DNA of 64,000 nucleotides, taken from contig JAMOWA010000040.1 of NCBI GenBank assembly GCA_027061805.1, positions 50,974 to 114,973 on the forward strand. The letters are read 5' to 3'. The translations under genes and the position numbers were made by a program. The notes under the pieces are model-generated. The model was not told where the DNA came from. It did not search any database and saw nothing but the letters and a program-made list of their open reading frames with translations. Source of the stretch: Thermoanaerobaculia bacterium. Lineage in GTDB: Bacteria; Acidobacteriota; Thermoanaerobaculia; Thermoanaerobaculales; Sulfomarinibacteraceae. Of the stretch, positions 6,787 through 62,821 are shown piece by piece. How positions within the stretch are numbered: the first letter of the stretch is position 1; each line of letters starts with the position of its first letter.

Positions 6787-6789
6787 GCG

Positions 6790-8433: not shown

Positions 8434-8839
8434 CGGAGGGAAGATCGTCGCCGGCCTCGTGGTGTTCCTCGTCCTGGTGACGGTGCCCGTCTGGCTGAAC
8501 GCCCTGGCGGGCGGGACGCCCCGGGCACCGGAGCTCGAGCTGCCCCGCGACGAGAGCCGGTGCGTGGAGCCCGCTGCGGTGATGCGGGCCACCCACATGG
8601 AGCTGCTCGACACCTGGCGGGACAGCGTGGTGCGTTCCGACGATCGCTTCTTCACCCTCGAGGACGGCCGGAGGGTGGAACGCAGCCTGAGCCGGACCTG
8701 CCTGGGGTGCCACGACAGGAAGGATGCCTTTTGCGACCGCTGCCACGACTACCTGGCGGTCTCGCCCTACTGCTGGGATTGCCACGTGATCCCCGAGGGC
8801 GGGACGGCCCTGGCGGCGGCGGGAGGGGGTGTGCGATGA
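8426..8839 (+). CDS. dsrJ: DsrJ, trihaem periplasmic cytochrome c
   Basis: N-terminal anchor KIVAGLVVFLVLVTVPVWL and three CxxCH motifs (CLGCH, CDRCH, CWDCH). ATG 8426 overlaps the dsrK end by 8 nt. Confidence 0.85.
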   Translation: MYDGGKIVAGLVVFLVLVTVPVWLNALAGGTPRAPELELPRDESRCVEPAAVMRATHMELLDTWRDSVVRSDDRFFTLEDGRRVERSLSRTCLGCHDRKDAFCDRCHDYLAVSPYCWDCHVIPEGGTALAAAGGGVR

Positions 8840-9609
8840 CGGTGGACCGGAGAACGTTCCTCAAGATCGCGGGCCTCGGAGCGCTGGGGACCACGGGGGT
8901 GTACTCGCTGCCCGTGCTGGGATCGCCGGAGAGCGGTCCGGGGGGGCACGGGGTGCCGGCCCCGGGTGGGACGCGGTGGGGCATGGTGATCGACCTGGCG
9001 GCGTGCCGCCACGACGAGGGGTGCCGGGACTGCATCGAGGTCTGCGGCAGGGTCCACAACGTCCCCCACCACGACGATCCCCGCCACGAGATCAAGTGGA
9101 TCTGGAAGGTGCCCTACCCCGAGGCCTTCCCCATGCAGCAGCACGAGTACCAGGAGCCGGCGCTGCTGGGGATGGCCGTCCCGGTGATGTGCAACCACTG
9201 CGACAACCCCCCCTGTGTGAGGGTCTGCCCCACACAGGCCACGTGGAAGCGGTCCGACGGGGTCGTCATGATGGACTGGCACCGCTGCATCGGCTGCCGC
9301 TACTGCATGGCGGCCTGCCCCTACGGCTCCCGGAGCTTCAACTGGGTGGAGCCCCGGGAGGCGCTGGAACACCAGGACCCCGGGTTCCCCACGCGGACCC
9401 GTGGCGTGGTGGAGAAGTGCAACTTCTGCGAGGAACGGCTGGCGAAGAACGAGCTTCCGGCCTGTGTGACCGCCTGCCCGCACGGGGCGCTGACCTTCGG
9501 CAACCTGGCGGACCCCGACTCGCCCGTGCGGCGGATCCTTGCGGGGCGCATGGCGATCCGCCGGAAGCCCTCCCTGGGGACCCACCCCGAAATCTTCTAC
9601 CTGGTGTGA
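8836..9609 (+). CDS. dsrO: DsrO, Tat-exported 4Fe-4S ferredoxin subunit
   Basis: Tat signal MTVDRRTFLKIAGLGALG. Cluster motifs CNHCDNPPCVRVCP, CIGCRYCMAACP and CNFCEERL..PACVTACP. ATGA overlap with the dsrJ stop. Confidence 0.9.
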   Translation: MTVDRRTFLKIAGLGALGTTGVYSLPVLGSPESGPGGHGVPAPGGTRWGMVIDLAACRHDEGCRDCIEVCGRVHNVPHHDDPRHEIKWIWKVPYPEAFPMQQHEYQEPALLGMAVPVMCNHCDNPPCVRVCPTQATWKRSDGVVMMDWHRCIGCRYCMAACPYGSRSFNWVEPREALEHQDPGFPTRTRGVVEKCNFCEERLAKNELPACVTACPHGALTFGNLADPDSPVRRILAGRMAIRRKPSLGTHPEIFYLV

Positions 9610-9616
9610 GGTGACC

Positions 9617-10774
9617 ATGCTGGAGAACGCCTTCCACGGAGACCGCCGGTACTGGACCTGGATCGGGTTCCTCCTCGTCCTCATGGGCGTCGGGGCCTTC
9701 TTCTACCTCCAGCAGCTGAGGTACGGCCTGGGAATCACCGGCATGAGCCGGGACGTGAGCTGGGGGTTCTACATCGCGCAGTTCACCTTCCTGGTGGGGA
9801 TCGCCGCCTCGGCCGTGATGGTGGTGCTGCCCTACTACCTCCACGACGTGAAGGTCTTCGGGCGGATCACGGTGCTCGGAGAGTTCATCGCCGTGTCGGC
9901 CGTCACCATGTGCCTGGCCTTCATCATCATCGACCTGGGCCAGCCCCAGCGGGCGCTCAACATGGTGCTCCACCCGAGTCCCCGGTCCATCCTCTTCTGG
10001 GACATGATCGTGCTCAACGGCTACCTGGTGCTCAACGTGATCATCACGAGGGTCACGCTGGACGCCGAGCGCAACGGCGAGGCGCCCCCGCGCTGGATCA
10101 GGCCGGTGATCATCCTGTCCATCCCCTGGGCCATCAGCATCCATACCGTGACGGCGTTCATCTACTCGGGCCTCGCGGCGCGGCCCTTCTGGATGACCGC
10201 CATCCTGGCGCCCCGATTCCTGGCCTCGGCCTTCTCCTCGGGTCCCGCCCTGCTGATCCTGCTCTGCCTGATCCTGATCCGCTTCACGAAGTTCGACCCG
10301 GGCTGGGAGGCCATCCAGAAGCTGGCCCTGGTGGTCACCTACGCGGTGCTGGCCAACATCTTCTTCGTGCTCATGGAGCTGTTCACGGCCCTGTACAGCG
10401 ACATTCCGGAACACCTCCTCCACTTCAGGTACCTCTACCTCGGCCTCGACGGGCACCACGAGCTGGTGCCCTGGATGTGGACGTCGGCCTTCCTGGTGGT
10501 GGCCTCGGCGGTCATCCTGGTGACCCCGAGGCTCCGGAGGCAGAAACGCTGGCTGGTGGCGGCCTGCATCGGCGTTGTGGTGGCCATGTGGATCGAGAAG
10601 GGCCTGGGGATGGTGGTCACGGGCTTCGTACCCTCGCCGCTCGAGACGGTGACCCGCTACGTTCCGACCTTCCCCGAGGTGGCCATCACCGTGTCCGTGT
10701 ACGCCCTGGGAGCCCTCATGGTGACGGTCTTCTATCGGATCGCCCTGTCCGTCCGCGGGGAGCTGGCGGGATAG
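9617..10774 (+). CDS. dsrP: DsrP, NrfD/PsrC-like integral membrane quinone-interacting subunit
   Basis: About 385-aa polytopic membrane protein directly after dsrO. Start set at ATG 9617 (MLENAFHGDRRYWTWIGFLLVL). Confidence 0.85.
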   Translation: MLENAFHGDRRYWTWIGFLLVLMGVGAFFYLQQLRYGLGITGMSRDVSWGFYIAQFTFLVGIAASAVMVVLPYYLHDVKVFGRITVLGEFIAVSAVTMCLAFIIIDLGQPQRALNMVLHPSPRSILFWDMIVLNGYLVLNVIITRVTLDAERNGEAPPRWIRPVIILSIPWAISIHTVTAFIYSGLAARPFWMTAILAPRFLASAFSSGPALLILLCLILIRFTKFDPGWEAIQKLALVVTYAVLANIFFVLMELFTALYSDIPEHLLHFRYLYLGLDGHHELVPWMWTSAFLVVASAVILVTPRLRRQKRWLVAACIGVVVAMWIEKGLGMVVTGFVPSPLETVTRYVPTFPEVAITVSVYALGALMVTVFYRIALSVRGELAG

Positions 10775-13497: not shown

Positions 13498-13540
13498 GGC
13501 CGGGGACACTCGAGCGCCCGGAAACGGCAGGGGGGGAACG

Positions 13541-19306: not shown

Positions 19307-19322
19307 TGGCACACACCTTGCT
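19307..19322 (+). promoter_or_regulatory. Sigma-54 (-24/-12) promoter
   Basis: TGGCAC-ACACC-TTGCT is a perfect core consensus, 223 bp downstream of the NtrC-type gene stop. Confidence 0.75.
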
Positions 19323-22543: not shown

Positions 22544-22558
22544 GCAAGCTCTGTGCCA
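22544..22558 (-). promoter_or_regulatory. Sigma-54 (-24/-12) promoter of the porin operon
   Basis: The minus strand reads TGGCAC-AGAGC-TTGC-T, a perfect core consensus. It lies about 70 nt upstream of ATG 22463. Confidence 0.75.
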
Positions 22559-30510: not shown

Positions 30511-32358
30511 ATGGAGGGTGACATGGAGGTGGGCTTGATCACACTGGCAATCGAGGGAAGCGGTGGTTCGGAGTTGACCTACCAGCTGAGCAAGACATCG
30601 ATCACGGTGGGTGCGTCCGATCGCAACGATGTGGTGATCCGTTCGCCCGGTGTGGCTCCCCGTCACCTGGTGATCCAGAGGACCGGTGAGGTCACGACCT
30701 TCGTGAGCCACCACCGGCAGCTGGTGGTGCTCAACGGAGAACGCCGGTCCAGGGGGGTGCTCCGGGTGGGGGACCGGCTGAAGATCGGCACGGTGGTGCT
30801 CATCTTCAAGGGCCTCGACGAGGGTTCCATCGAGGTGACCCAGGTGAGCGAGGCCGGGGAGCGGGAGGCCGGTCCGGAGTCCGGTGTGGTCCCCGAGGCC
30901 ACCCCTGCCTCCGGGTCACGATCCGAGCTTGTCCTCTACAGCGAACCGAGCCGGCTGGCCGAGGCGCGTCGCCGGATGGTGGAGATGTTCCGGGGGGCGA
31001 TCCATACCGACCTCATTCCTCCCCTGCGTGCCTTCTTCGAGGACTGTTTTCCCGGCCGGGAATGCATGCTGGCGTGGCTGAACGAGGAGGGGGAGCTGCA
31101 ACCGCTGGTCTCCCTGTGGACGAGCCGGATGCCCGGCCTGCCTGCCCGGACCCTCAACGAGCTGACCGTCGGGGGCCGCTTCGGCCATCTCCATCTGGGG
31201 AGCCGGGACATCCTGGTCTACCCGGTGGATCAGGGGACGCTGGGTCCACCCGCCTTCCTGGTGGTGGAATCGTCCGGAGAGACCGGCAAGGACGATGAGC
31301 TGGTGCTGGCGGAGCTCTCCAGGATCCTGGCCGTCTTCTGGGACCGGGTGGAGCGTTCCCCGGGTCTCTACGGAACCTGGGAGGCGGAAGCCCGCCGTAC
31401 GGTCGAGAGCGCCCTCCCTGGCTCGTCGCACGCCATCCAGGTGCTGCGCGAGGCCGTTCTGGAGGCGGCCCGTGGTGTCCGGCCCGTGCTCATCTGCGGG
31501 CGGGCGGGGAGCGGCAGGAGGCGCACCGCCACCCTGATGGCCTCCCTCCACCCCACGGGTCCGCTTCCCGTGCATGTCTTCGAGGTGGGTGCGTCCGATG
31601 GAGAGGCCCTGAGATCCCGTCTGTTCGGTCTGGAGGGGCCGGGATCAGGGGGGCTGCTGGACCGGGCCAGGGGCGGTATCCTGGTCCTCCCCGAGATCCA
31701 CCGGTTGCCGACGACCTTCCAGAGAGAGGTGTGTGCCGCCATCAGGTCGGACCTGGAACGGGCCTACGGTCCCATGGTGCGGTGGGTGGCCACGGCCGAG
31801 GAGGACCTGCTGAGCCTCGTGAACGAGGGCAGCCTCGATGCGGACCTCTTCAACGTCTTCCAGCACCACCTGATGAAGGTCCCGTCTCTGGCCGAGCGCC
31901 GGGAAGACCTGTCCCTCCTCATCGTGACACTGCTCCACAACCTTGCCTCCGAGCAGGGCAAGGAGATCCGCGGTATCGAGCTCGAGACGCTGAACTCCCT
32001 TGTGATGCACCCCTTCGAGGGGGAGATGGCAGAGCTGGTGACGGAGCTCCGGCGCCTGGTGACGGCCACCCCGGACGGGGCGATGGTCCGGGGCAGGGTG
32101 CCGCTCCGTCCCCTGGCGCCCGGCGAGGCTCCTGGCGGGGGGGCCGGTGATGTCACCGGTACGGAGTTCCTCTCCTGCGACGATCTCAAGGTGGTGATTC
32201 CGGGGGTGGAACGGCTCGTCATCGACCGGGTGCTCCGGAAGACCCTGGGCAACCAGAGCAAGGCCGCCAGGATCCTCAACCTCTCGCGGGGAGCCCTCAT
32301 CGCCAAGATGAAGGACTACGACATCCCGGATTACCGTTACCTGCGAAAGAAGAGGTAG
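30511..32358 (+). CDS. FHA-domain regulator with GAF-like middle region, degenerate sigma-54-activator AAA+ module and Fis-type HTH (pseudo-bEBP)
   Basis: FHA region: ITVGASDRNDVVIRSPGVAPRHLVI..LNGERR..LRVGDRLKIG. Walker A is degraded to GRAGSGRR, GAFTGA is replaced by GPGSGG, Walker B reads ILVLPEI, and the FRxDLYYRL arginines are absent (LDADLFNVF). HTH: AARILNLSRGALIAKMKDYDI. ATG 30511 follows GGAGGCGGAG. Confidence 0.75.
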   Translation: MEGDMEVGLITLAIEGSGGSELTYQLSKTSITVGASDRNDVVIRSPGVAPRHLVIQRTGEVTTFVSHHRQLVVLNGERRSRGVLRVGDRLKIGTVVLIFKGLDEGSIEVTQVSEAGEREAGPESGVVPEATPASGSRSELVLYSEPSRLAEARRRMVEMFRGAIHTDLIPPLRAFFEDCFPGRECMLAWLNEEGELQPLVSLWTSRMPGLPARTLNELTVGGRFGHLHLGSRDILVYPVDQGTLGPPAFLVVESSGETGKDDELVLAELSRILAVFWDRVERSPGLYGTWEAEARRTVESALPGSSHAIQVLREAVLEAARGVRPVLICGRAGSGRRRTATLMASLHPTGPLPVHVFEVGASDGEALRSRLFGLEGPGSGGLLDRARGGILVLPEIHRLPTTFQREVCAAIRSDLERAYGPMVRWVATAEEDLLSLVNEGSLDADLFNVFQHHLMKVPSLAERREDLSLLIVTLLHNLASEQGKEIRGIELETLNSLVMHPFEGEMAELVTELRRLVTATPDGAMVRGRVPLRPLAPGEAPGGGAGDVTGTEFLSCDDLKVVIPGVERLVIDRVLRKTLGNQSKAARILNLSRGALIAKMKDYDIPDYRYLRKKR

Positions 32359-32461
32359 GCGCGTCGCGCGGGGAAGACCGTGGCGCGATGGCGGCTTCCC
32401 GCTGCATCCATGGTGGCGGGCCGGTCGCGATGCTTCCCTGCGCGGCCCGTGTGCAGCCGGG

Positions 32462-33061
32462 TCACCTCGTGTCGGGAGCTTCCCTGGAGGGCAACGGGAG
32501 GATCCCTGCCACAAGGTCCCAGTTGTAGGCGATCCACAGGACGAACGGCGCCCCGAGCCGCATGGGGAGGTCGGTGAAGTACTGGAGGAAGGCGTAGGCG
32601 TTTCTCGCGAGGGAGGAGAAGTTCCGCTCGCTCCATGGCCCCAGGGCCGTGGCGTAGGTGAACTTCACGTGGAAGAGCACGTTGAGGGACTGGATGACGA
32701 ACAGCAGGCACCAGGCCATGAAGAGCCGTTCCAGCTGACGCCGTGAGAACGGCCGGGGGAGGGCCAGGAACAGGGCCAGGAGGACGATGGTGTTGAAGTG
32801 GACCTGGGTGAGCGGGATGGGGGGCAGCCGGGATCCCGCACGGAGATCGGAGCGCGTGACGTGGGCCGCATGTTCCCGGGCCGCCACGAGCGTGACCCGT
32901 GGCACCTCGTAGGCCCGGATCAGGAGCTGGGCCGTGCCGGCGACCGCGGCGTCGAGGCCGGGCCGGAGCAACACCCAGATCAGCGTGGCCACCACCGCGG
33001 CCACGGGGAGCCTCCTCAGGAAGGTCCGGTGAACGTCAGTCGGTGGCAGTTCCGCGCCCAT
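32462..33061 (-). CDS. Polytopic membrane protein co-transcribed with the exosortase (candidate exosortase-associated factor)
   Basis: About four hydrophobic helices (VAAVVATLIWVLL, IVLLALFLALP, FMAWCLLFVIQSL, FVLWIAYNWDLVAGILPL). Its start overlaps the exosortase 3' end by 26 nt. Confidence 0.6.
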   Translation of the reverse strand: MGAELPPTDVHRTFLRRLPVAAVVATLIWVLLRPGLDAAVAGTAQLLIRAYEVPRVTLVAAREHAAHVTRSDLRAGSRLPPIPLTQVHFNTIVLLALFLALPRPFSRRQLERLFMAWCLLFVIQSLNVLFHVKFTYATALGPWSERNFSSLARNAYAFLQYFTDLPMRLGAPFVLWIAYNWDLVAGILPLPSREAPDTR

Positions 33062-33602
33062 ACCGGCCTGCCCAGAAGACCCACAGTGCGACCCCGGCGA
33101 GGATCACGATGGACTGCCACACCACCACGTGGGCGTTGTTGAACCACGACGGGAAGAAGGCCCCGATGTAGTAGAGAGAGACGATCCGGATCATGTTGAT
33201 CAGCTGGATGGCCACGATGCCGCCCACGACGCCGATGAGCTTGGGCCGCCACCCCACGGGGAAGGCCAGGACAGCGGAAAGGAAGATCAGCGTCGTGATG
33301 AGCCCGTTGCAACCGTTGAAGATGGTCACGGCAAATCGGGGCGAGGCCAGGAGGCACCCCCGGACCGTGACCTTCTCGCCGAGGCCCTGGAGGATCCTGC
33401 CGGCGACCTTCGCCACGCCCGCGGTGTAGGGGTCCACGAAGGCGTCGTTCACGGGCTTGAGGGCGACGATGCCAAAGCTGGAGACCAGAAGGCCGACGAA
33501 TACCAGAAGAAACCTCGTCTCCGGCCTGGACAGCAGGGGCGAGCGTCTGGCTCCGGTGGAGCGGTCCTGCGGGTGCCTCGTGGAAGGGGAGCGCCTGGCC
33601 AT
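33036..33602 (-). CDS. Compact exosortase/archaeosortase-family transpeptidase (188 aa)
   Basis: Polytopic membrane protein carrying the family Cys/Arg/His signature in order: TIFNGCNGLITTLIF, QLINMIRIVSLYY, NNAHVVVWQS. Confidence 0.7.
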   Translation of the reverse strand: MARRSPSTRHPQDRSTGARRSPLLSRPETRFLLVFVGLLVSSFGIVALKPVNDAFVDPYTAGVAKVAGRILQGLGEKVTVRGCLLASPRFAVTIFNGCNGLITTLIFLSAVLAFPVGWRPKLIGVVGGIVAIQLINMIRIVSLYYIGAFFPSWFNNAHVVVWQSIVILAGVALWVFWAGRYGRGTATD

Positions 33603-33603
33603 C

Positions 33604-36147
33604 CTACCTCTGCATGGCCACCCGGATCAGGGCGGCGTGAAGGTCGCTGGCCGAGGCGTACCGGCGGGAGGGATCCTTCTCCAGGCACCTGAGGATGATG
33701 TCGCCGACCTCGCGGGAGAGCCCCTCCATCACCTGGAGCGGATCGGGAGGTTCCTTCCTGAGGTGGGCGTCGATCACGTTGCCCCGATTGAAGGGGGGGC
33801 GTCCGGTGGCCAGGTGGAAGAAGGTCGCCCCCAGGGAGTAGATGTCACTGCGGGCCGAGGGGGCCTCTCCCCGGATCTGCTCCGGCGACATGTAGAAGGG
33901 TGTGCCGCAGATCTTGCCGCCTGTGGCCCGGTCCGTACCGAGGCGGGCCGCGATGCCGAAGTCGAAGATCTTGACCCGGTTGGTGGCCGTGAGCAGGATG
34001 TTTCCCGGTTTGATGTCCCGGTGGATGACCCCCTGCTGGTGGGCGTAGGCGATGGCGTCGGCGACCTGCACGAGGAGGGGCAGCAGGTTGCGCTGGATCC
34101 GTTCGGGGTTTTCCCGGATCACGGCATCCATGGGCCTGCCATCCACGTACTCCATGGAGATGAGGTATCCGCCGAGCCCGGGTCCGAAGTCGTAGACCGT
34201 GACGATGGCGGGGTGATTGAGAGTGGCGGCGGCCTTGGCCTCCTCCTCCAGGAGGGAGGCCTCGGTCACGGATGTGGTCCGCACGACCTTGATGGCCACG
34301 GTTCGTTCGAGGCGGGTGTCCCGCGCGCGGAACACCACGCCCATGCCACCACGGCCGAGCTCGGAGAGAATCTCGTAGCGCTCTCCGCTCTCGGCCCCGA
34401 GGCCCGTCCGGGTCGCAGAGGGTGCAGGTGCGGTCTTGCTGGTCCGGCGGGCAAGGGCGGCGCGCTCGAGCTCCTGCTGGACATTCCGGACCTCGGTGTT
34501 CGAGTAGTCGAACTCCAGCACCTTCTGGATCTGCGTCCGGGCGGCCTCCAGGTCGCCGGCCTCGAGCAGCATCCGGGAGAGCTCGACGGCCGCAGGGATC
34601 CGGGCAGGCGATGGGGCGACACCCACGACGGTCCGCTGCAGGCAGGCGATGGCCTCGGGGAGACGATCCTCCTTCCGGAGTGTGCGTGCGATCTCCAGGA
34701 TGACGCCGGGAATGTCGGGGACGGGCCCGGGCTGCTCCTTGAGCAGGGTCCAGGCCTCGTCGTCCAGGCCCGTCCGGCGGAGCTCCACCAGCGCCTCCGG
34801 CAGTCGGCCCAGCTGCACGAGCGAGCGGGCCACGCCGCGCGCGTCGCCCACCTGGCGGTAGAGATCCAGGGCCCGTTCGGCCTCTCCGGCGGCCTCGGCA
34901 CACCGGGCGGCCTCCGCGAGCTGGCCGCCGAGCTCGTGGGCGTCGCTGGCCTCGCCCCAGCGTCCGAGACGTTCCAGGAGGGCCGCCGCAAGCTCCCACC
35001 TCTGGGCGGCCGAGGCCACCTCCGCGGCACGGGCCACCTGGTCCTTGGCGAGGAGGAGGGTGACGGCCTCGTCCACGCGATCCACGTGCAGGAGGACCTC
35101 CACACGCGCGTCGTCCATTCCCAGCTCCTCGAGCCGTGGCAGCAACCGTGCCGCGACCGCCTCGAGCTCCCGTTTCTGTTCGGATCCGCTCACGGCCGTG
35201 GCCTGGATGAGGCTCATGGCCATCTGCTTCTCGGCGCGGAGCAGCAACAGGGCCGCGTCCCGGGACCTTCCGGCGCGGTCCAGTGCGTCGGCGGCCTTCT
35301 CCAGCTTTCCGAGACGGATCCAGGCCTCGGCCGCGGCGTCGGGCTTCCCGGCCCGCATCCACGCCTCGGCGGCCCCGTCGTAGTCGCCCTCGGTCTCCAG
35401 CAGCCGTGCCGTGAGCTCGTGGTCGCGAACCGACTCCGCGGCCCGTCGTGCCGCCTTGAACTCTCCCGTGGAGGGATTGATGCGCCCCTTGCTCATGGCG
35501 AGACGGGCCGCCCGGGCGGCTCGCTCGGGCTCACCGGCCCGCATCCAGGCCCCCACCGCGTCGCTGAACCGGTTGCGTTCGGTGTACCACCGGGCCAGGG
35601 CGTGATGGCACTGCCGGGCCTCGTCGGGCAGGCCCCGGGAGAGAAACAGCCGTGCGGCCTCCTCGAGATGCTGATGCCCCGCCTTCTTGTAGAGCTCGGC
35701 GGCCTCCTCCTTCCGGCCGAGCTTCAGGGCAACGCGTGCCGCCTCCGGCCAGGCGTGGGCCTTCCGATACAGCGTGAGGGCCCGGCGGAGGTCACCCGCC
35801 TTGAGGAAGAGGTCGGCCGCGCCGCCGGGATCGCCCCGTCGGGCCAGGCGCCGCGCCAGGGCACGGTCGGGGTTGGAGCCGGACAGCAGCGCCCACAGGC
35901 CCCACGAGACGAGCGCAAGGGCCACGGTGTTCCCCGCCATGGACACCGGAGGCGTGAGGTGCTTGCCCAGGAGCTGCTCGGCCGTGGCCTGCCCGAGGAG
36001 GCGGGCGGCCCAGCCCAGGTTGCTCACCACGGCAAGCGCGACTCCGGCGAGAATCTGCGGGAACCAGCGGCTTCTGCGAGCCACAGGCACGGCCAGCCCG
36101 ATGAAGGCCAGGAGAACGGTCGGTTCCATTCCGTCCACACCGGCCAT
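33604..36147 (-). CDS. Membrane-anchored TPR/helical-repeat Ser/Thr protein kinase (kinase domain C-terminal)
   Basis: C-terminal Hanks kinase motifs GRGGMGVVF, AIK, HRDIKPGNILL, DFGIA, SPEQ. N-terminal TM helices and about 450 aa of Ala/Arg-rich helical repeats. Start is ATG 36147 or 36129. The stop lies 1 nt before the exosortase ATG. Confidence 0.85.
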   Translation of the reverse strand: MAGVDGMEPTVLLAFIGLAVPVARRSRWFPQILAGVALAVVSNLGWAARLLGQATAEQLLGKHLTPPVSMAGNTVALALVSWGLWALLSGSNPDRALARRLARRGDPGGAADLFLKAGDLRRALTLYRKAHAWPEAARVALKLGRKEEAAELYKKAGHQHLEEAARLFLSRGLPDEARQCHHALARWYTERNRFSDAVGAWMRAGEPERAARAARLAMSKGRINPSTGEFKAARRAAESVRDHELTARLLETEGDYDGAAEAWMRAGKPDAAAEAWIRLGKLEKAADALDRAGRSRDAALLLLRAEKQMAMSLIQATAVSGSEQKRELEAVAARLLPRLEELGMDDARVEVLLHVDRVDEAVTLLLAKDQVARAAEVASAAQRWELAAALLERLGRWGEASDAHELGGQLAEAARCAEAAGEAERALDLYRQVGDARGVARSLVQLGRLPEALVELRRTGLDDEAWTLLKEQPGPVPDIPGVILEIARTLRKEDRLPEAIACLQRTVVGVAPSPARIPAAVELSRMLLEAGDLEAARTQIQKVLEFDYSNTEVRNVQQELERAALARRTSKTAPAPSATRTGLGAESGERYEILSELGRGGMGVVFRARDTRLERTVAIKVVRTTSVTEASLLEEEAKAAATLNHPAIVTVYDFGPGLGGYLISMEYVDGRPMDAVIRENPERIQRNLLPLLVQVADAIAYAHQQGVIHRDIKPGNILLTATNRVKIFDFGIAARLGTDRATGGKICGTPFYMSPEQIRGEAPSARSDIYSLGATFFHLATGRPPFNRGNVIDAHLRKEPPDPLQVMEGLSREVGDIILRCLEKDPSRRYASASDLHAALIRVAMQR

Positions 36148-36421
36148 TCTAGCCTGGAATATTCGAGACGTTTCACCGCGCGGCGCGATCCACCATTCCT
36201 GGCGGTGTTGCAGCGGCTCGGCTGTCCGTCGTGCTCGAGGCACCCCGTTGCTCCCTCGTCGTGCGAGAACACCGCCACGATCCCTCCTGTATCGTCCAGG
36301 CTGGCCCGGTTCGTCGGCGGACGGCACAGTCCGGGGTCCTTGCTCCGGAACCCTGCGTCCGGCAGAAGGACCGGCCCGCGGTGCGGGCCACGGAGTTCCG
36401 GATTTTTTTGTGACGATGGGG

Positions 36422-36450
36422 TTGAAATTTTATAAAGAATCACTCATATT
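36422..36450 (+). promoter_or_regulatory. Promoter upstream of dnaJ-like gene (TTGAAA -35; either sigma-32-like CACTCATAT or sigma-70 CATATT -10)
   Basis: TTGAAA-N13-CACTCATAT partly matches the sigma-32 consensus TTGAAA-N13/14-CCCCATNT. The same DNA also reads TTGAAA-N17-CATATT. Confidence 0.35.
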
Positions 36451-51837: not shown

Positions 51838-52250
51838 GCCTCGCCCCGCGCGTGGTCGTCGCTCGCAGCGGTCCGGCGCTCGGCGCGTTCGCGCCGCAGC
51901 TTGAACTCGATGAACTCCTGGACCTCCCGACGGCTCTCCTCGCCGAGCTGACGCAGCATGTGCAGGGTCTGCATGTCCTCCCGGGACAGTGGCCGGGAGG
52001 GAGGGGCCTCCACGGGAGACCTCTCCGAGAAGAACTGGGCCATGTCCATGCCGAAGACCGTCAGGATCTTGAAGAGGTTGTCCAGCGAGACCCGGTAGGT
52101 CCCCTTCTCCATGCGCGACAGATCGGACTGCTGGATGCCAATCTGGCGTGCCAGCTCAGCCTGCGTGAGGCCCCGTGCCTTGCGCAACTCCCTCAGACGC
52201 GCGCCGATGCGCGCCACGTCGTTCCGGGATGTGGGGGTCCGTCCCCGCAT
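51834..52250 (-). CDS. XRE/Cro-C1-family HTH transcriptional regulator
   Basis: IGARLRELRKARGLTQAELARQIGIQQSDLSRMEKG. ATG 52250 lies 8 nt after GGAGG, so it is preferred over ORF-track GTG 52268. Confidence 0.8.
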   Translation of the reverse strand: MRGRTPTSRNDVARIGARLRELRKARGLTQAELARQIGIQQSDLSRMEKGTYRVSLDNLFKILTVFGMDMAQFFSERSPVEAPPSRPLSREDMQTLHMLRQLGEESRREVQEFIEFKLRRERAERRTAASDDHARGEA

Positions 52251-52322
52251 TGTTGCGACCTCCGGCACGTGCTACGATCACCTTTCGGGGGGATCGCAGA
52301 CCTCTCCTACTCAATACATATT

Positions 52323-53150
52323 ATGGCATTTCAGCAATCGGGTCAACAGGCGTGGGACACGGGGCTGGCTGGTGAGCTCCGGCGGCACCGGTTCCTCCTG
52401 TTCCAGCTGGCCCGCCGCTCCTTCGCGGCCCGCCATGCGGAGAACCTCCTGGGATGGTGGTGGTCGCTGATCTCCACGGCGTTCCAGGCCCTGCTCTTCT
52501 GGGCCATCTTCTCGAGGGTGATTGGCATCAGGATTGCAGAGCCGCGCGGCGTGGGATTTGCCGTGTACCTGATGACGGGGCTCGTGCCCTTCGCCGCGCT
52601 GCAGGATGCCCTGACGCGCTCCGCCACCGTGTTCAGGCGGCATGCGGCCATCGTCCAGAGGGTTCGCTTTCCCCTGGGTGTCCTGGTGACCGGGGATCTC
52701 CTGGGGACCCTCGCCTACCACGCCCTCCCCCTGGCGGCGGTGGGGATCTGGTGCCTCGCCGCCGGGCACCTGGAGCTCCCGGGAATGGGGGGGCTGGCCC
52801 TGGGGCTGGTCTTCCTGGCCGTCTGGACCCTGGGCCTGGGGCTGGCGCTCGCCGTGGTGGGGGCCCTGCTCCCGGACGTGGATCACGTGCTCTCCCTGGT
52901 GCTGCAGGCCGTGTTCTACGGTGCCCCCATCGTGTACCCGCTTTCCATGGTGGGCGAGGGGACACTCGGGACGGTGGTCCGGGCGAACCCGCTGACCGTC
53001 ATGGTGGAGCTCGTCCGGATGGGCCTCATCGGGGCCGCCGCCCCGGCCGCTGCTCCGGTCATCGCGGTGGCCGTGGGCGGGGTGGTCCTGGTGGTGGCCG
53101 GCACGGCTCTCCTGGGCCGGTACAGGTGGCGGATTCCCGACGTGGTGTGA
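52323..53150 (+). CDS. ABC-2-type polysaccharide/glycan exporter permease (Wzm/TagG/KpsM-like)
   Basis: ATG 52323 is in frame inside ORF 51852-53150. ELRRHRFLLFQLARRSFAARHAENLLGWWWSLI opening and six hydrophobic helices. No obvious RBS. Confidence 0.75.
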   Translation: MAFQQSGQQAWDTGLAGELRRHRFLLFQLARRSFAARHAENLLGWWWSLISTAFQALLFWAIFSRVIGIRIAEPRGVGFAVYLMTGLVPFAALQDALTRSATVFRRHAAIVQRVRFPLGVLVTGDLLGTLAYHALPLAAVGIWCLAAGHLELPGMGGLALGLVFLAVWTLGLGLALAVVGALLPDVDHVLSLVLQAVFYGAPIVYPLSMVGEGTLGTVVRANPLTVMVELVRMGLIGAAAPAAAPVIAVAVGGVVLVVAGTALLGRYRWRIPDVV

Positions 53151-53237
53151 GTGGATGGTTCCGGGGTGATCCGGACGTGACGAGGATGGCCGGCGCCATC
53201 CCATGCATGATCGAGGTCGAGGAAAGGAGAGACGACG

Positions 53238-54926
53238 ATGAAGGACACGACGGGACGCAGGTGGCTGGCGTTGACGGCTGCCGCGGTTCTGATTGCAGGT
53301 GGTGCGGTGGCCCGGCAGGGATCCGCGCAGGTTTCCGGCCAGAAGGGGACCGCGAAGGCCTCCCGGGCCGGCGAGACAACGACGACAACGGTGAAGGGCG
53401 GGAACCTTCGCTTCGAGACCTTCCAGGAATGGATGGACTACATGCTCACGCCACGTCCGTATCCGAAGGATGTGATCATCCGGATCGACGAGAAGCACGC
53501 CTACCCCCACGCCGCCGCGCAGCAGTGGAAGATGGAGATCGTCAGGGAGGAGGGGGACACCGTCTGGATGCGACCGCTTCCTCCCGAAGATCCCGAGTCC
53601 ATCCTTCACAGACCCTGGCTGGACCAGCAGGAGCTGGAGGCCCGTGAGCTGCAGTACCGGAAGAAGCTGCCCAAGGCGTGGTTCGTCAACTTCTCGAACG
53701 AGATCGTTCCTCCCGGAACGCAGGACGCGCTGGAGATGCGGTACGTTCCAGGCGAGTTGCCGAACCGGGGCAACTGGCAGATGAACGTGGTCCTGGCCGA
53801 CATGAACGAGGACGGCAAGGTGGACCTCGTGGCCGGCCTTCCGCGCAAGGGCGGGGTCCAGACCCCGAACATCTGGCTGGGGGACGGCAGGGGGGGGTTC
53901 ACCCACTGGAAGGACGTGCGCTGGCCCACCGGGGACGTCGCCTTCGACTACGGCTCGGTGGCCGTGGCCGATTTCGACGGCGACGGTCACCAGGACGTGG
54001 CCCTCGCGGTGCACTTCGGCCGGCAGTACGTGTTCCACGGTGACGGTGCGGGCGGCTTCCTGCGGTGGAAGAAGCTCCCGGCACCCGACGAGAGGATCAC
54101 CTCCAGGGCGGTGGCGGCCGGGGACCTCAACGGTGATGGCCGGCCGGACCTGGCGTTCATCGCGGAGCTCAACATCGACCGGACGACGCAGAAGCGGTAC
54201 GACGTTCCCACGGTCTGGGTCCTGGAGAACCTCGGGAAGGGCACGTGGAGAAAGCGGACCGAGCTCCTGCCCACCTATGTCTTCTCGGACCGGATCTCCA
54301 TTGCCGACGTGAACGGTGACGGCCGGCCGGACCTGGTCATCGCGGCCAACTTCCAGAACTGGCGTGATCTGGTGATCCTCAACCAGGGCGGCTGGAAATG
54401 GGGTGGTGTGAACATCGACCGCATCCTCTCGTCGGCGGTGCACTTCGACGTGGCGCCTGTGGCGGCCGATACGGGCGAGTCCGGCCGCACGACGGACCTC
54501 TTCGCCGCCTTCGAGGAGTGGGCGTCCACTCCGGGTGAGACACGGGGCAAGCCCGAGCTCGAGGCGAGGACCGGCGTGGCGCGGTACCGCTGGGACCCGT
54601 CGAAGAAGGGGTTCCGCTACAGGCAGGTCATCCTCGACGACGAGATGGTGAACCCCTTCTGGCGCGTGGCGGCCGGGGACCTCGACGGGGACGGCCGGAC
54701 CGACCTGGCAGTGGCGAGGAAGGGGGGTGAGCTGCTCCTCCTGGTCCAGGACGATACCGGCAAATGGGTGCAGGAGCTCTCCCCCGAGATCCCGGCCATG
54801 GGGCGCGCCATGGACCTCAGGCTCGTGGACCTCGACGGCGACGGTCTGGATGACCTGGTGGTGTCGGCGGCCGCCCGGAAGGGTCCGGGAGGCATCTACG
54901 TGTGGCTCACGGGCACGAAGGAGTAG
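53238..54926 (+). CDS. Secreted FG-GAP/VCBS-repeat (integrin-alpha-like beta-propeller) protein
   Basis: Signal peptide. Repeated DxNxDGxxDL calcium-binding loops: ADMNEDGKVDLV, ADFDGDGHQDVA, GDLNGDGRPDLA, ADVNGDGRPDLV, GDLDGDGRTDLA, VDLDGDGLDDLV. Confidence 0.85.
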   Translation: MKDTTGRRWLALTAAAVLIAGGAVARQGSAQVSGQKGTAKASRAGETTTTTVKGGNLRFETFQEWMDYMLTPRPYPKDVIIRIDEKHAYPHAAAQQWKMEIVREEGDTVWMRPLPPEDPESILHRPWLDQQELEARELQYRKKLPKAWFVNFSNEIVPPGTQDALEMRYVPGELPNRGNWQMNVVLADMNEDGKVDLVAGLPRKGGVQTPNIWLGDGRGGFTHWKDVRWPTGDVAFDYGSVAVADFDGDGHQDVALAVHFGRQYVFHGDGAGGFLRWKKLPAPDERITSRAVAAGDLNGDGRPDLAFIAELNIDRTTQKRYDVPTVWVLENLGKGTWRKRTELLPTYVFSDRISIADVNGDGRPDLVIAANFQNWRDLVILNQGGWKWGGVNIDRILSSAVHFDVAPVAADTGESGRTTDLFAAFEEWASTPGETRGKPELEARTGVARYRWDPSKKGFRYRQVILDDEMVNPFWRVAAGDLDGDGRTDLAVARKGGELLLLVQDDTGKWVQELSPEIPAMGRAMDLRLVDLDGDGLDDLVVSAAARKGPGGIYVWLTGTKE

Positions 54927-55057
54927 CCGCGTGGCGCACCCCGATCTGCGGAGCACCCCTGCCACCATTGACATCAGGGATGTCCGGCGGTACTCTCGCT
55001 TCGGACGGTCCGGAGGGATCGGGGCGTGATTGGCGTCATGTTTTTCTCCGGGCATGC

Positions 55058-55086
55058 TTGACAGCCGGAGAATCGGGTGCTAGTTT
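55058..55086 (+). promoter_or_regulatory. Sigma-70-type promoter TTGACA-N17-TAGTTT
   Basis: Read directly in the AT-richer spacer, about 135 nt upstream of ATG 55222. Confidence 0.4.
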
Positions 55087-55221
55087 TATGCTGTAGTGAC
55101 ATATTCGAGGTTTCCGACTCTGCTTCGGGAGGTGATGCATATCGGATGGGTGGAACACAAGGCAGGCAATCACAATCGTCACGGTTTCTTTTTTCGAAAA
55201 ACAGATAGGGAGGAGAACGGT

Positions 55222-56676
55222 ATGAAGAAGTTTCTGACCTACGCCCTGGCCGCGGTCCTTGCCCTCGGTGCGGGCAGCGTCGCCTACGCGAATGTCTGCG
55301 CGGTGGACCAGGTTCCGGCCGCCACACTGCTGTACCCCTTCGTGGTCCTCGACTACAACGGTGGTGGCAGCGGTACGACCACGCTGTTCTCGGTGACGAA
55401 CGTGTCGTCCGAGGCCCAGATCGTTCACTTCGTCCTCTGGACGGACTACAGCTACCACGTTCTGGACTGGAACGTCCTGCTTTCCGGTTACGACGTCCAG
55501 ACCATGAATATCCGCGACATCCTCATGAACGGCGTCCTGCCCTCCACGGGTACGGTCAGCGGTGTGGATGACACCACCTCCAACGATGGTGGTGCGGTTT
55601 CCGGCTTCGGCCCCCGCATCGACGTGGGCGCGCTGGACGGTTCCGACAGCACCACCACCCTGTACGATCGGTGCAACCCCGGCATGACCGCGTACCCCGA
55701 CTACGACGAGTTGATGCCCGACAGCTTCCTCGCGACCCTCAAGGGCTGGCTGCAGCGGTCCCAGGCGGCCTCCCGCGGTCACTACGACTGCGAGCTGGAC
55801 GAGTACTTCCACGATGCCAACATCTGGTGGGAGCAGCGGACCGACGCCGATCCGACCTGGATGTACATCACCGCCGACGTGGTGTGGACCTGCAACCGGT
55901 TGTTCCCGGATTCTCCCGACTACTGGATCCCGGGTCCCGCCAACAACCCGTCCTACGATGAGAACGGTGCGCAGGCCATGTACGACAATACCCTGATTGG
56001 CGACATCTTCTACGTCAACCAGGACCAGAACCTGTCCGAGGCGCTGCCCGCCGTCTCCCTGGAGACCGACCCGGAGCTTGACGGGTACATCACCTTCTAC
56101 AGCACCTACACGCTGGGCGCCGGTGGTGTGTACAGCGACCTGCGCGAGCCGCTGCCCAACGGGTACGGCGTGCGCTACCTCTTTGCCGACACCGAGGACG
56201 CGAGCGGCACCGCCGTGCGCGTCTTCAAGCGGTCCACCTCCCCGCAGCCCGGTGGCGACCCCATCGTGTGGGATCTCGAGGCCGTTGGCTTCCCGTATCC
56301 GTCCGCCATGTACGCGTCCAACTGCAGGGGTTACGTGCTGTACGCGTGGGACGAGGACGAGAACGTCATCACCAGCACGCCGGATCCGGACGATCCGTGG
56401 TCGCCGCCGCCCTGCATCGGTGACGGCTGCGAGACCCCGAATCCGCCCAACCAGCTGCCCCTCGAGACCCAGGAGGTCGTGATCGAGCAGCTGCCGCACG
56501 TGGACATGTTCGGCTGGATCTGGATCGTGTGGCCTGGCCCCACGGCAACCCAGACCGACGACGACTACTACCAGACCTACGTGAGCGTGAAGTACAACTA
56601 CGGCGGGTACTCCATGGCCCTGCCGGGCGCCGTGCTCAACAGCGACAACTGCTGGGTAGAGGTTCCCGTCCTGTAA
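55222..56676 (+). CDS. Cys-rich secreted orphan protein (484 aa)
   Basis: ATG 55222 follows GGGAGGAG. Signal peptide MKKFLTYALAAVLALGAGSVAYA. Ten Cys in the mature part. No family recognised. Confidence 0.7.
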   Translation: MKKFLTYALAAVLALGAGSVAYANVCAVDQVPAATLLYPFVVLDYNGGGSGTTTLFSVTNVSSEAQIVHFVLWTDYSYHVLDWNVLLSGYDVQTMNIRDILMNGVLPSTGTVSGVDDTTSNDGGAVSGFGPRIDVGALDGSDSTTTLYDRCNPGMTAYPDYDELMPDSFLATLKGWLQRSQAASRGHYDCELDEYFHDANIWWEQRTDADPTWMYITADVVWTCNRLFPDSPDYWIPGPANNPSYDENGAQAMYDNTLIGDIFYVNQDQNLSEALPAVSLETDPELDGYITFYSTYTLGAGGVYSDLREPLPNGYGVRYLFADTEDASGTAVRVFKRSTSPQPGGDPIVWDLEAVGFPYPSAMYASNCRGYVLYAWDEDENVITSTPDPDDPWSPPPCIGDGCETPNPPNQLPLETQEVVIEQLPHVDMFGWIWIVWPGPTATQTDDDYYQTYVSVKYNYGGYSMALPGAVLNSDNCWVEVPVL

Positions 56677-56700
56677 TTTCTCCCCCAGGGAGTCGATCGA

Positions 56701-56725
56701 GGGCGGCCTTCGGGCCGCCCTTTTT
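56701..56725 (+). terminator. Rho-independent terminator
   Basis: GGGCGGCC-ttcg-GGCCGCCC followed by TTTTT, 25 nt after the stop codon. Confidence 0.8.
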
Positions 56726-56847
56726 CCTGCGGCAGTCGTGCAGAGCCACACCGCGCGATGTCCCGGGGGCAAGGCGGGGGAACTCACCGGCCGGACCGGG
56801 ACCAGAGGGGTGGTTCCTCCGGTCGAGCCGGCCGGGAGGCCGGGTCC

Positions 56848-56863
56848 TGTGACCTGTCTCACC
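56848..56863. promoter_or_regulatory. CRP/FNR-like box TGTGA-N6-TCACC
   Basis: Reads tgtga cctgtc tcacc, one mismatch from the consensus, about 200 nt upstream of the giant gene. Confidence 0.3.
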
Positions 56864-56984
56864 TCTCCGGGAGGGAGGGGCCTTGGGTCCGGGCCCGGAA
56901 TCTGCTAGACTTCGGTCTGGATGGGGGAAAGGGGGTCGTGTAGCCGCCTTTCCCGGAGGTCGTATTCATGCCGTTCTTTTTCAG

Positions 56985-57022
56985 GAGTCATTGAGATGTG
57001 CCCCACATCGCCGAGTCATTGA
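56985..57022 (+). promoter_or_regulatory. Composite operator-like element: direct repeat GAGTCATTGA x2 flanking palindrome GATGTG-ccc-CACATC
   Basis: Repeat copies lie at 56985-56994 and 57013-57022 (28-bp period), with the palindrome at 56995-57009. The element sits immediately upstream of the candidate starts 57031/57055. Confidence 0.45.
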
Positions 57023-57054
57023 ACGGAACCATGAAAGGCAATTGGAGTCTGACC

Positions 57055-60000
57055 ATGACATCGATCCGTCCGAACGAGAAGTTCCGGGACGTGGCCAGGG
57101 CTGCTGCCATTGGCCTGATTCTGGTGGGAAGCCTGATACCGGCGGTCCGCTCCCGGGCTGCCGACGAGGCGGACTGCACGTCCACCTACTGCTTCACGGG
57201 CCTCCTGCTCGACGAGAGTGACCAGCGGGACGAGTACACCTGCTTCGACAGGGTCCGGTTTGCGGACCGCTTCACCTGGAACGACCACGCCTGGGCACTG
57301 GTGAACGCGGGCAACGATCTGCTCCTCTACGATCTCCAGAACCTGGGCCGTGGCCTCACCGACCGTGGAGGCTACGGTCTCGGCCAGAACTGTGCCATGA
57401 CCGAGCCGCCCAGGGGAACCATCACCGGGCCGGAGCCCGCCGGTGCCGGGCTCGAGGGCCCGGAAGGCCAGTCCCCGAAGGTGGTCAGTGCCTTCGATTT
57501 CCTGGACACCTACTCGGTGTGTGACGCCTACGGTTCCGGTGCGTGCCGGTTCGCCTTCTCCAACTACTCCCACGACGGCGCGGCCGGCTTCGCCATCGAC
57601 TTCGGGTCCCCCACGGGAGCCCGGCCCTACCTGGAGGACTACTGGAAGTATCCCGACATCTACTTCGGTGCCACGTGGGGGCTCAACGGCAACCAGTACG
57701 TGATCGTGAAGGGGTTTGCCGAGTCGGAGGGTTGCACGGACGGATGGGGGGTCTTCCGGGTCGTGGCGGGTTCGCCCCCGGTCTTCACCTACATGCAGTG
57801 CGCCCCTTCCAACCTGGCTCCGCGGTACTCCAAGCAGGCCCACGATCTGCTGTTCACCTTTGATCGGTCGAACGTCCAGGTGTGGGGCCTCGACCCCACC
57901 ACCGGGATGATCTCCGACGAGGCCGACGGGAGCGGCATCTCGGGCTACGGCGAGAGCGCCATGAACATCGATGCCCACGGCTACGACGGGACCTCGGGCT
58001 CTGTGGTGATGGTGGTGACCGACGTCAGGGGCTCGTCGGGTACGGCCCAGCTCTTCGAGGTCACGGGGCCGGGAACCTCGGCCGTGGTGACCCGGAAGTA
58101 CACGTTCCCCGATCCTCCCGGGTTCGACCCCCCCTCCGTCAAGGGCTGGTTCTCCAGTGCGGTGAACAGGGGGCCCACGGGGCACTACGTCTTCCTCGAG
58201 CAGAACCTCGGGATCTTCACGGGTCACAGGGTGCTCTACGACATCACCGACCTGACGAACCCCGTCGCGCTCGACGGTGGTGCCACCGGGTACTGGAGCG
58301 ATCCCAACTCCGATTTCAACCAGGCCGGCTTCGACAACGACGATGCGCTGGACTTCATGCCCATCTTCTCCTTCGACGGCACCCAGTTCCTCATGATGCG
58401 GAAGTACATGCTGGCCCGGTTCCAGTACGGCGGACCTCCCGTGCCCACGGCCGGCCTGGAGATGCAGCCGGCCGTCCGCTTCCCGGGTGACACGGTCACG
58501 CTGAAGGACAGGTCCACGTCGGCCGACGGCGTGGCCATGTGGATCACCGATGGCAGCGGAACCAAGGTCGAGGGCGACTACGAGCCACCCACCTACGACC
58601 TGAACCCTCCGACCGACGATGTGGTCTGGAACACCGCGCCGCTGCAGCCCATGGCCTTCGACGCCGGGTGCACCACGCTGTCTCCCGGGCCCTACACGGC
58701 CCACGTGGAGATCATCCCGTCGGGCGAGGAGGACCGGGTGGACCGGGTCATCTCCTTCCAGTGCAGGCCGGGAGCCGCCATCTCCGTGTACCCCTCCACC
58801 GCCATGACGGGCGAGGTGGTCACCCTCACGGGAACCGTGGACGGCGGGACCCCCATCCAGTGGGAGTGGAAGGTGACCGATCCGGCCAACACCACAACAC
58901 CCACCACCCATCCGGCGGGCAACGGGACCGGAACGGACTCGCTGGACGTGAGCATCACCCAGGCCGGCGAGTGGAAGTTCGAGCTGACCGCCGTCTACCA
59001 GCACACGGTGGACGGGTCGTCGTGGGAGGCCGTTGCGGTTCCGGTGGTGAAGACCTATTCGTCCGTGGCGCCGGTGCTTGACGTGGTTCCCGGAGCGCCC
59101 CGCCCCACCGACGTGGTCACCTTGAAGGGTGACCAGTCGCTGCTCGGTGCGAACCTCACGGTGAGCTACACCTACACCCTGAACTCGGCGGAGCAATGCT
59201 CGGGCACCTTCAATTCCAACACCGACACCGTGCCCGACTGCGAGATCGGCACCCTCTCGGAGGGCTCGTACACGGCGGTGCTCACGCTTGATCCCGACGA
59301 TGGCAGCACCCCGGTGTCCGACACCCGGCACGTCACCGTGACCGATACCGACTTCTCCATCTCGCCCACCGATCCGGAGATCGGCGAGATCGTCACCTTC
59401 TATCCCACCAAGACCCCGTGGTCGGGTGAGTGGGACTTCGGTGATCAGGGCTGCGTCGGCTACGGCCAGAAACTGCACTGCCCGCCGGGCCAGATCTGCG
59501 GCACGCTTCCTCCCCAGTACAAGTACGCCGACAGCGGGGTGAAGACCGTCACGTTCACCCCCACGGGTGGTTCGCCGGTGTCCCGGACGCTCACCGTGCA
59601 GCCCAAGGGGAGCTGCAGCGGCGGGGTCACGTGCACCTACTCCATCTCGCCCGCGTACTTCAACGTGCCGGCCTCGGGCGGGAGGTACACGCTGAGGATC
59701 ACGGCCAGCTCGCCAACCTGCGGGTGGAGCGCCACGAGCCTGAACCCCTCCTGGATCGGCATCTCGCCCACCAGAGGCTCGGGAACCAAGGCCCTCAACG
59801 TGACCGTGCTCGCCAACGGCGCCGCCAAGCGGCAGGGCTCGATCCGTGTCATCGCCGGGAAGAGCTACACCATCAACGTGAACCAGGCCGCGGGTGTGGT
59901 GTGTGATCCCATCGACGCCACCTACACCTGGACTCCTGACCGCGACACCTTCGGGGTGGGTGAGACGGTGCACTTCATTGACACTTCTTCGGGAGTGACC

Positions 60001-61611: not shown

Positions 61612-61638
61612 GCCCGGACCGCGATACCATTCACAGAC

Positions 61639-61670
61639 GGGGTGGCCAAGGGGCCACCCCGTTGTTTGTT
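61639..61670 (+). terminator. Rho-independent terminator
   Basis: GGGGTGGCC-aagg-GGCCACCCC followed by GTTGTTTGTT. Confidence 0.75.
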
Positions 61671-61797
61671 GGTTCTGCAGGTGGGACACGGACAGAATGA
61701 TCGGGGAAGTGGTGGATCCCGAGTGCACCCGCCGTGGACGAGCATGGGCGCCCGAAAGCCCTCCGTGGTCCGGTCAGGGTTGGAATCCGTTTCCCTC

Positions 61798-62643: not shown

Positions 62644-62685
62644 GCATGCCTCCTGGGGTCCAACCCCGATTCTTGCGGTGAATAT

Positions 62686-62701
62686 AGCAGGAACCGTACC
62701 A
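62686..62701 (-). promoter_or_regulatory. Weaker sigma-54-like promoter
   Basis: The minus strand reads TGGTAC-GGTTC-CTGCT. GG-N10-GC spacing is correct, with two departures from the consensus. It lies about 45 nt upstream of ATG 62643. Confidence 0.3.
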
Positions 62702-62821
62702 GCCTGGGGCCCCGGTGGGCGCCTCGCGAAGAGGGGTTGCCGTGCCCCGCCGGCACGCCGTGCCATGCTGGCCGGGAGCCGCTCCGCTCCACCCCGGCCC
62801 CTGTGGTATCGTGACGGCACC

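Follow-up and report, generated by a model that had tools for sequence, protein, structure and literature searches.

The 64,000-nucleotide stretch of DNA analysed here (the window; contig JAMOWA010000040.1, positions 50,974 to 114,973, of the Thermoanaerobaculia bacterium assembly GCA_027061805.1) carries genes for a membrane-anchored serine/threonine (Ser/Thr) kinase, an exosortase H (XrtH) and an XrtH-associated membrane protein (the partner). All three lie on the minus strand in the order kinase, XrtH, partner, and a gene for an FHA-domain regulator converges on them from the other side. A single base separates the kinase stop codon from the XrtH start codon, and an orthologous kinase precedes XrtH in 51 of the 71 related loci in which it could be counted. 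The XrtH–partner pairing is an already curated, known named pair. What appears to be new in the sequence is the kinase junction together with the FHA regulator. We regard it as an even chance that the locus is an ordinary XrtH system sharing an operon with a kinase whose signal passes through the FHA regulator, in a manner like the PrsK/PrsR/PrsT set of other exosortase systems. The features of the cassette and of its convergent neighbour are as follows.

36148..36449: spacer between the divergently oriented kinase and dnaJ genes, rich in AT towards dnaJ
33604..36327, minus strand: open frame of the kinase; GTG 36327 is the farthest start, and gene callers use ATG 36147, which gives 847 amino acids
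33604..36147, minus strand: membrane-anchored TPR Ser/Thr kinase, 847 amino acids; Pfam Pkinase (PF00069), 170 bits
35872..36147, minus strand: N-terminal membrane anchor of the kinase, about three hydrophobic segments (amino acids 4-20, 29-45 and 74-90, hydropathy scan)
34423..35865, minus strand: TPR-like helical repeats of the kinase, amino acids ~95-575; several TPR Pfam families, weak to moderate
33619..34386, minus strand: C-terminal Hanks-type catalytic domain, amino acids 588-843
33600..33606, minus strand: kinase-stop/XrtH-start junction, TAGGATG, with AGAGG just 5' of it
33036..33602, minus strand: XrtH, 188 amino acids
32462..33061, minus strand: XrtH-associated membrane protein (the partner), ATG 33061, 199 amino acids
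30511..32358, plus strand: regulator with FHA, sigma54-type AAA+ and Fis-type HTH domains (Pfam FHA/Yop-YscD_cpl; Sigma54_activat, 44.8 bits; HTH_8)
about 30601-30789, plus strand: FHA domain of the regulator

The kinase stop TAG (33606-33604) is followed by the single base G 33603 and then by the XrtH ATG at 33602-33600. The minus-strand letters of this junction are CAGAGGTAGGATGGCC. At the other end of XrtH, the partner frame from ATG 33061 shares 26 nucleotides (33036-33061) with the XrtH 3' end. Public gene calls begin the partner at the later GTG 33004 and so give a protein of 180 amino acids. This start would drop F14 and L15, two residues that do not vary among 41 homologues, as well as the conserved FLRRLP motif, and the alignment to the NCBIfam partner model begins at residue 13 of the 199-residue form. 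Therefore, ATG 33061 with its 26-nucleotide overlap is the better call. The minus strand from 32200 to 36147 was scanned, and neither a sigma70-like site nor a terminator-like hairpin was found inside the cassette. The Rfam search matched no element in the cassette or in 36148..36449, and no sigma54 consensus was present in either place; the window-wide count of sigma54 sites was at chance level. The short or overlapping junctions fit co-transcription. The three genes are apparently co-transcribed and in places translationally coupled, and 36148..36449 is the likely promoter region of such a three-gene operon.

The 188-residue protein was classified with NCBIfam hidden Markov models. It scored 115.4 bits against TIGR04177 (exosortase H, cutoff 86), and all other exosortase subfamilies remained below their cutoffs (next best were XrtX, 74.7 bits with a cutoff of 170; XrtM, 69.2 bits with a cutoff of 125). 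The exosortase/archaeosortase superfamily was also recovered with TIGR04178 (46.5 bits, cutoff 23) and PF09721 (26.8 bits, cutoff 25.7). The protein carries the strings TIFNGCNGL, LINMIRIV and NNAHVVVW, and Cys98 (33309-33311), Arg139 (33186-33188) and His158 (33129-33131) are invariant in an alignment of 18 XrtH sequences. Four hydrophobic segments above the hydropathy threshold mark it as a multi-pass membrane protein. XrtH is believed to be a compact, transpeptidase-like enzyme of the Cys/Arg/His type that cuts a C-terminal IPTLxxWG-type sorting signal off secreted proteins. The label "exosortase H (IPTLxxWG-CTERM-specific)" is borne by many of its homologues at JGI and by one at NCBI. A PDB sequence search with XrtH detected no solved exosortase structure. 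The matches to HIV protease that it returned cover a short hydrophobic stretch only, the best-ranked of them have no single stretch above threshold, and they were rejected as spurious. One XrtH homologue (P0064) has an N-terminal prepilin-type N-methylation motif (PF07963; FTLIELMISLVV), which may reflect a chimera or an error in gene calling.

The partner scored 37.6 bits against NF041730, "exosortase H-associated membrane protein", over model positions 3-181 of 184; the margin above the cutoff of 35 is narrow. Its homologues number 508, and PF28117 is found in many of them. NCBI names some of these homologues exosortase H-associated membrane protein and leaves many others hypothetical. The partner lies directly 3' of XrtH in 77 of 78 loci. 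Its AlphaFold2 model reached a predicted local distance difference test score of 87.5 and gave no fold match in the PDB (best E = 0.86). The possibilities that the partner represents the missing N-terminal half of the long exosortases, or EpsI, received no support from the models and were set aside.

The kinase combines a membrane anchor, a helical repeat region and a C-terminal catalytic domain in one chain. The loops of the anchor that face outside are short and hold no extracytoplasmic sensor domain. The basic clusters RRSR, after segment 1, and RRLARR, after segment 3, suggest by the positive-inside rule that the TPR and kinase parts are cytoplasmic. The TPR region of about 480 residues shows conserved blocks across the kinase orthologues. 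The closest solved relative of the catalytic domain is PknB of M. tuberculosis (E 5e-57), and the motifs GRGGMGVV, VAIKVV, HRDIKPGN, DFGIA and SPEQ are kept in 50 orthologues. These orthologues are 42-58% identical to the kinase of the window, with every catalytic motif retained. The PASTA-type model NF033483 gave 280 bits, below its cutoff of 450, and the match covers the kinase domain only (model positions 6-269 of 563). In NCBIfam, no curated family or dedicated model claims the kinase. Thus the three identities put forward in the original prediction hold, namely a Ser/Thr kinase, an exosortase with the quoted Cys/Arg/His strings and a membrane protein that may be a dedicated accessory factor. 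The compact class proposed for the exosortase can be narrowed to exosortase H, and the accessory factor falls into a curated XrtH-associated family. The coordinates of the genes, the gap of one nucleotide and the overlap of 26 nucleotides were also correct when re-read from the sequence.

The conservation of this arrangement was surveyed in one scan of species-representative genomes, which yielded 80 XrtH loci of 10-20 kb each from relatives that are metagenome-assembled genomes of Thermoanaerobaculia (Acidobacteriota). The kinase was counted in the 71 species-level loci with at least 2.8 kb of upstream flank, and in 51 of these the orthologous transmembrane TPR kinase lies directly upstream of XrtH on the same strand. 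Orthology was supported by matches in the TPR region as well as in the kinase domain (E about 1e-100). The exact proteins of the window are themselves encoded on a 139.5-kb contig from an uncultured bacterium. The adjacency that the original prediction proposed to look for in relatives is thus conserved. The distance from kinase stop to XrtH start is mostly between -8 and +100 nucleotides, and the two genes overlap by 4 nucleotides on three metagenome contigs (L088-L090). Some relatives have a spacer of 180-560 nucleotides made of simple repeats. In four of them (L012, L016, L019 and L040; 344-560 nucleotides) the short-period repeats translate as RVRVRV, PCPCPC or TDTDTD. The longer spacers of the relatives were scanned for small open reading frames (ORFs), and no mini-cargo was found, only repeats and an unrelated ORF for a four-helix bundle (L040). 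An apparent second copy of the cassette at locus L014 (8001-19026) is a near-perfect inverted duplication with its palindrome centre near 13510. It is most likely a fold-back artefact of long-read assembly and was therefore not counted. No paper linking an exosortase to a Ser/Thr kinase was found in the literature search. An operon-like kinase–exosortase junction with an FHA regulator looks undescribed in the literature searched, which agrees with the earlier statement that no description of such a coupling was known.

The convergent regulator was counted in the 68 loci with enough downstream flank, as a gene convergent with XrtH and within 2.5 kb of it. It is present in 50 of these 68, including the kinase-less loci L028, L072 and L078. 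Therefore, the association of the FHA regulator with XrtH is wider than that of the kinase. FHA domains are readers of the phosphothreonine made by Hanks kinases, so the adjacent kinase is the obvious input to the regulator in this clade. On its domain composition, the regulator is a DNA-binding FHA protein that may read phosphothreonine as a partner of the kinase. The AAA+ domain of the window protein has degenerated, in that Walker A reads GRAGSGRR (Lys to Arg), Walker B reads LVLPEI and GAFTGA is absent. The same degeneration, with the Lys-to-Arg exchange in Walker A, the deletion of GAFTGA and the loss of Walker B, is seen in all regulator orthologues of the kinase-linked clade. Relatives of the regulator at L072, L065 and L078 keep Walker A and also have no GAFTGA.

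Three known systems were compared with the locus. The XrtH system (TIGR04177 with NF041730 / PF28117) is matched in that both proteins are above the cutoffs, the XrtH is compact and the partner lies directly downstream in an overlapping frame. The difference is that, here and in 50 related species-level genomes, a co-oriented transmembrane TPR Ser/Thr kinase precedes the pair, with the convergent FHA regulator beyond it. The XrtH system is reported to be specific for IPTLxxWG-CTERM signals, and no IPTL-type cargo was seen here in the ~72 kb read. PrsK (a transmembrane histidine kinase), PrsR (a Fis-HTH enhancer-binding regulator) and PrsT (a TPR protein) accompany the PEP-CTERM/XrtA (EpsH) system, sometimes in adjacent genes (Haft et al. 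2006, PMC1569441). Like this set, the locus surrounds an exosortase with a TPR module, a transmembrane kinase and a Fis-HTH regulator that carries a domain of the sigma54-interaction type. However, the kinase here is of the Hanks Ser/Thr type, unlike the histidine kinase PrsK. Here the TPR module forms a cytoplasmic part of the kinase itself, whereas PrsT is a lipoprotein. In the regulator, an FHA input replaces the receiver domain, the AAA+ domain has lost GAFTGA and the Walker motifs, and the PrsR model TIGR02915 gave 59.6 bits with a cutoff of 502.6. On these comparisons the locus is an analogue of the PrsK/PrsR/PrsT set rather than a member of it, and the input chemistry is not homologous. 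The third comparison is with a PknB-type Hanks kinase and its FHA protein. The catalytic domain closest to PknB, the intact motifs and the FHA gene next door are the points in common. In contrast, the domain order here is reversed (membrane anchor, TPR, C-terminal kinase), PASTA repeats and other extracellular sensor domains are missing, and the FHA protein is a DNA-binding pseudo-enhancer-binding protein.

The proposed mechanism starts from an XrtH–partner pair that, in one clade of Thermoanaerobaculia, came to stand directly behind the gene of a membrane-anchored, cytoplasmic TPR-Hanks kinase and then stayed there. The role of the kinase would be regulatory. Lacking an external sensor domain, it would receive its input across the membrane or from partner proteins. 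Its output would be threonine phosphorylation read by the convergent FHA, Fis-HTH regulator, which in turn would control genes connected with the sorting system. The FHA regulator next door would be a more conventional kinase target than XrtH or the partner.

A number of observations weigh against this mechanism. With its degenerate AAA+ domain and no GAFTGA, the regulator does not work as a sigma54 activator, so that the analogy to PrsR is only partial. Neither cargo nor target promoters were identified in the ~72 kb formed by the window and ~7.7 kb to its left. In a neighbour-joining tree of XrtH, the kinase-linked genes all fall into a single clade, within which the kinase was lost once (L028), and all 21 XrtH genes outside that clade are without the kinase. 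The kinase link thus arose once, and the 51 loci represent one evolutionary event followed by retention. There are 20 XrtH loci without the kinase. The clade also shares a 12-kb syntenic block consisting of amidohydrolase, cNMP/TPR protein, def, dnaJ, kinase, XrtH, partner, FHA regulator, DUF4388, transglutaminase, nusB and ribH. Because dnaJ, def, nusB and ribH are syntenic as well, adjacency alone is no proof of a functional tie. The kinase/XrtH junction was broken once (L028), as against at least two breaks of the dnaJ/kinase junction and at least three of the partner/regulator junction; all are similarly rare. A co-linear homologue of the kinase with 36% identity (P0145) keeps dnaJ, yet the 6 kb downstream of it contain no XrtH. 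The loci concerned in the last two points are as follows.

L028: the sole XrtH of the kinase-linked clade without the kinase, with a DUF4214 protein in the place of the kinase
L084, 2302-4740, plus strand: P0145, homologue of the transmembrane TPR kinase, 36% identity over the N-terminal region, with a divergent dnaJ and with AAA_28 and HPPK genes next

The metagenomes were scanned for transitional loci with patterns seeded on the N-terminal region of P0145. The patterns were too specific, and only the sequence of P0145 itself was returned.

The simplest history would be that two modules, dnaJ/kinase and XrtH–partner(–regulator), became juxtaposed and co-oriented once. From the distribution of the genes, the link is not needed for XrtH, as judged by the kinase-less loci, and P0145 suggests that the kinase family can do without it too. 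The same observations are the ground for the reading that there is no functional link at all. The kinase would belong with the dnaJ side, the XrtH–partner(–regulator) module would have landed downstream of it once, and the order would have been kept by synteny inertia with read-through tolerated. The single origin, the synteny of the whole block with its housekeeping genes and the dnaJ–kinase pairing of P0145 all favour this explanation. It is also favoured by the repeat-filled spacers in some relatives and by the occurrence of XrtH–partner pairs in other contexts, beside TonB-like and aldehyde dehydrogenase genes (L061, L063), a histidine kinase (L072) or DUF4214 (L028). However, the genes share a strand, and gaps of 1 nucleotide or overlaps of up to 8 nucleotides occur in several sub-lineages. 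The arrangement was held while the kinase diverged to 42% identity. The trio also stayed intact through four independent flank rearrangements, in which L043 and L051 lose everything downstream and L035 and L068 lose the dnaJ side. Finally, Ser/Thr kinases and FHA proteins encoded side by side are a recognised functional pair. Adjacency without function thus retains substantial weight, as a possibility that we would place clearly below an even chance.

A variant that keeps the FHA regulator as the output was also considered. The anchor of the kinase would dock on XrtH or the partner, and the sorting machine itself would serve as the sensor of the kinase, reporting, for example, on cargo load or envelope state. 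The output would be phosphothreonine presented to the FHA regulator and possibly a modification of the partner PFS106RRQ loop. We consider this circuit unlikely.

The weakest explanation is direct phospho-control, in which the kinase, acting from the cytoplasm, would gate the transpeptidase by phosphorylating XrtH, the partner or cargo precursors, and we judge it quite improbable. It draws on the translational abutment, which suggests co-production in fixed proportion as in the subunits of membrane complexes, and on the sensor-less anchor, which fits docking onto membrane partners. It also draws on Ser106 of the partner, which lies in the basic PFSRRQ loop and is Ser/Thr in 94% of the kinase-linked versus 20% of the kinase-less homologues; among the clade-specific Ser/Thr, this is the only attractive candidate for a phospho-site. 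However, the clade-specific Ser/Thr residues (T103 and S104 of XrtH; T91, S106 and T163 of the partner) are inseparable from phylogeny. T103 and S104 stand beside the catalytic Cys in a hydrophobic segment, where access from the cytoplasm is improbable, and the Ser/Thr-rich N-terminal tail of the window XrtH is missing from most kinase-linked orthologues. XrtH–partner pairs manage without the kinase in the 20 loci mentioned above. No earlier case of a sortase-like enzyme under phospho-control turned up in the literature searched, and we know of none. The phospho-regulated surface-protein processing suggested in the original prediction accordingly found no direct support, no conserved Ser/Thr site being separable from phylogeny.

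Cargo was sought in the window and in ~7.7 kb past its left end (L082), and no plausible gene there has a C-terminal tail of motif, transmembrane helix and basic cluster. The earlier statement that the window holds no PEP-CTERM-like tail is borne out. The gene cut by the window edge (3-2198, minus strand) was completed from the longer contig; its full C-terminus ends ...LVRVTLPSPK and has no sorting signal. An NCBIfam scan of 140 concatenated C-terminal tails returned no CTERM family among the best 25 of 111 and the best 25 of 31 families, and it also missed the cargo-like tail of L066 described below, which makes it a weak negative. The only tail in the window with a transmembrane helix and a basic cluster belongs to ORF 51852-53150, which encodes an ABC-2 (Wzm-type) permease and was rejected as cargo. 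Across the 80 related loci, a cargo-like gene lies next to XrtH in one (L066), and its tail gives no match to the NCBIfam IPTL-CTERM model. This gene and a membrane-tailed cytochrome gene at another locus are as follows.

L066, 8349-9875, plus strand: cargo-like gene for a GH32-like/DUF11-repeat protein ending AIPVTSNTGLLTFIGLLALVGVVALWRLRI, ~110 nucleotides upstream of XrtH
L028, 4790-7267, minus strand: multihaem cytochrome with MtrC/MtrF-like domains, a C-terminal transmembrane helix and an RRRRRGR tail, no clear motif; 2.5 kb upstream of XrtH

PEP-CTERM cargo genes are typically single-gene operons dispersed over the genome (PMC1569441). Since dispersal is the rule and 79 of the 80 related loci are alike in this respect, the missing cargo is ordinary. 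The cargo genes of XrtH presumably sit elsewhere in the genome.

Three other parts of the window were noted. Genes for surface proteins and polysaccharide export are clustered at 52311-64000, about 19 kb away from XrtH, and none of them has a sorting tail. The members of the cluster are as follows.

52311-53150: Wzm-type ABC-2 permease
53238-54926: FG-GAP protein
55084-56676: protein of 484-530 amino acids without a Pfam match
56998-61611: BACON-domain protein of 1537 amino acids
from 62132, running past the window end: Wzt-type ATPase

Two perfect sigma54 -24/-12 sites (TGGCAC-N5-TTGC) are found at 19307-19321 (plus strand) and 22544-22558 (minus strand), and none at the kinase/XrtH locus. 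They precede a gene for a protein of 255 amino acids and a porin-like gene, beside a histidine kinase/enhancer-binding-protein pair at 16.2-19.1 kb. A dsrMKJOP-like electron-transfer block occupies 5767-10774 (plus strand), with matches to the DsrM, DsrJ, DsrO and DsrP models and to the Pfam families Nitrate_red_gam, Fer4 and NrfD. This block points to a sulfur-cycling member of Thermoanaerobaculia or a Sulfomarinibacter-like organism.

Although exosortases are widespread, to our knowledge no member has had a detailed biochemical characterisation, and what is known of their regulation comes solely from the comparative genomics of XrtA systems. The value of the present locus is limited by its uncultured hosts, by an association of single origin and by a cargo not seen in the DNA read. 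Nevertheless, it names concrete candidates, which are the kinase, the FHA regulator and Ser106 of the partner. If the circuit with the sorting machine as sensor were true, it would give exosortases and sortase-like systems their first described control circuit based on a Ser/Thr kinase. If signalling through the regulator holds, XrtH with its conserved Ser/Thr kinase and FHA regulator would represent a second, different regulatory design for exosortases.

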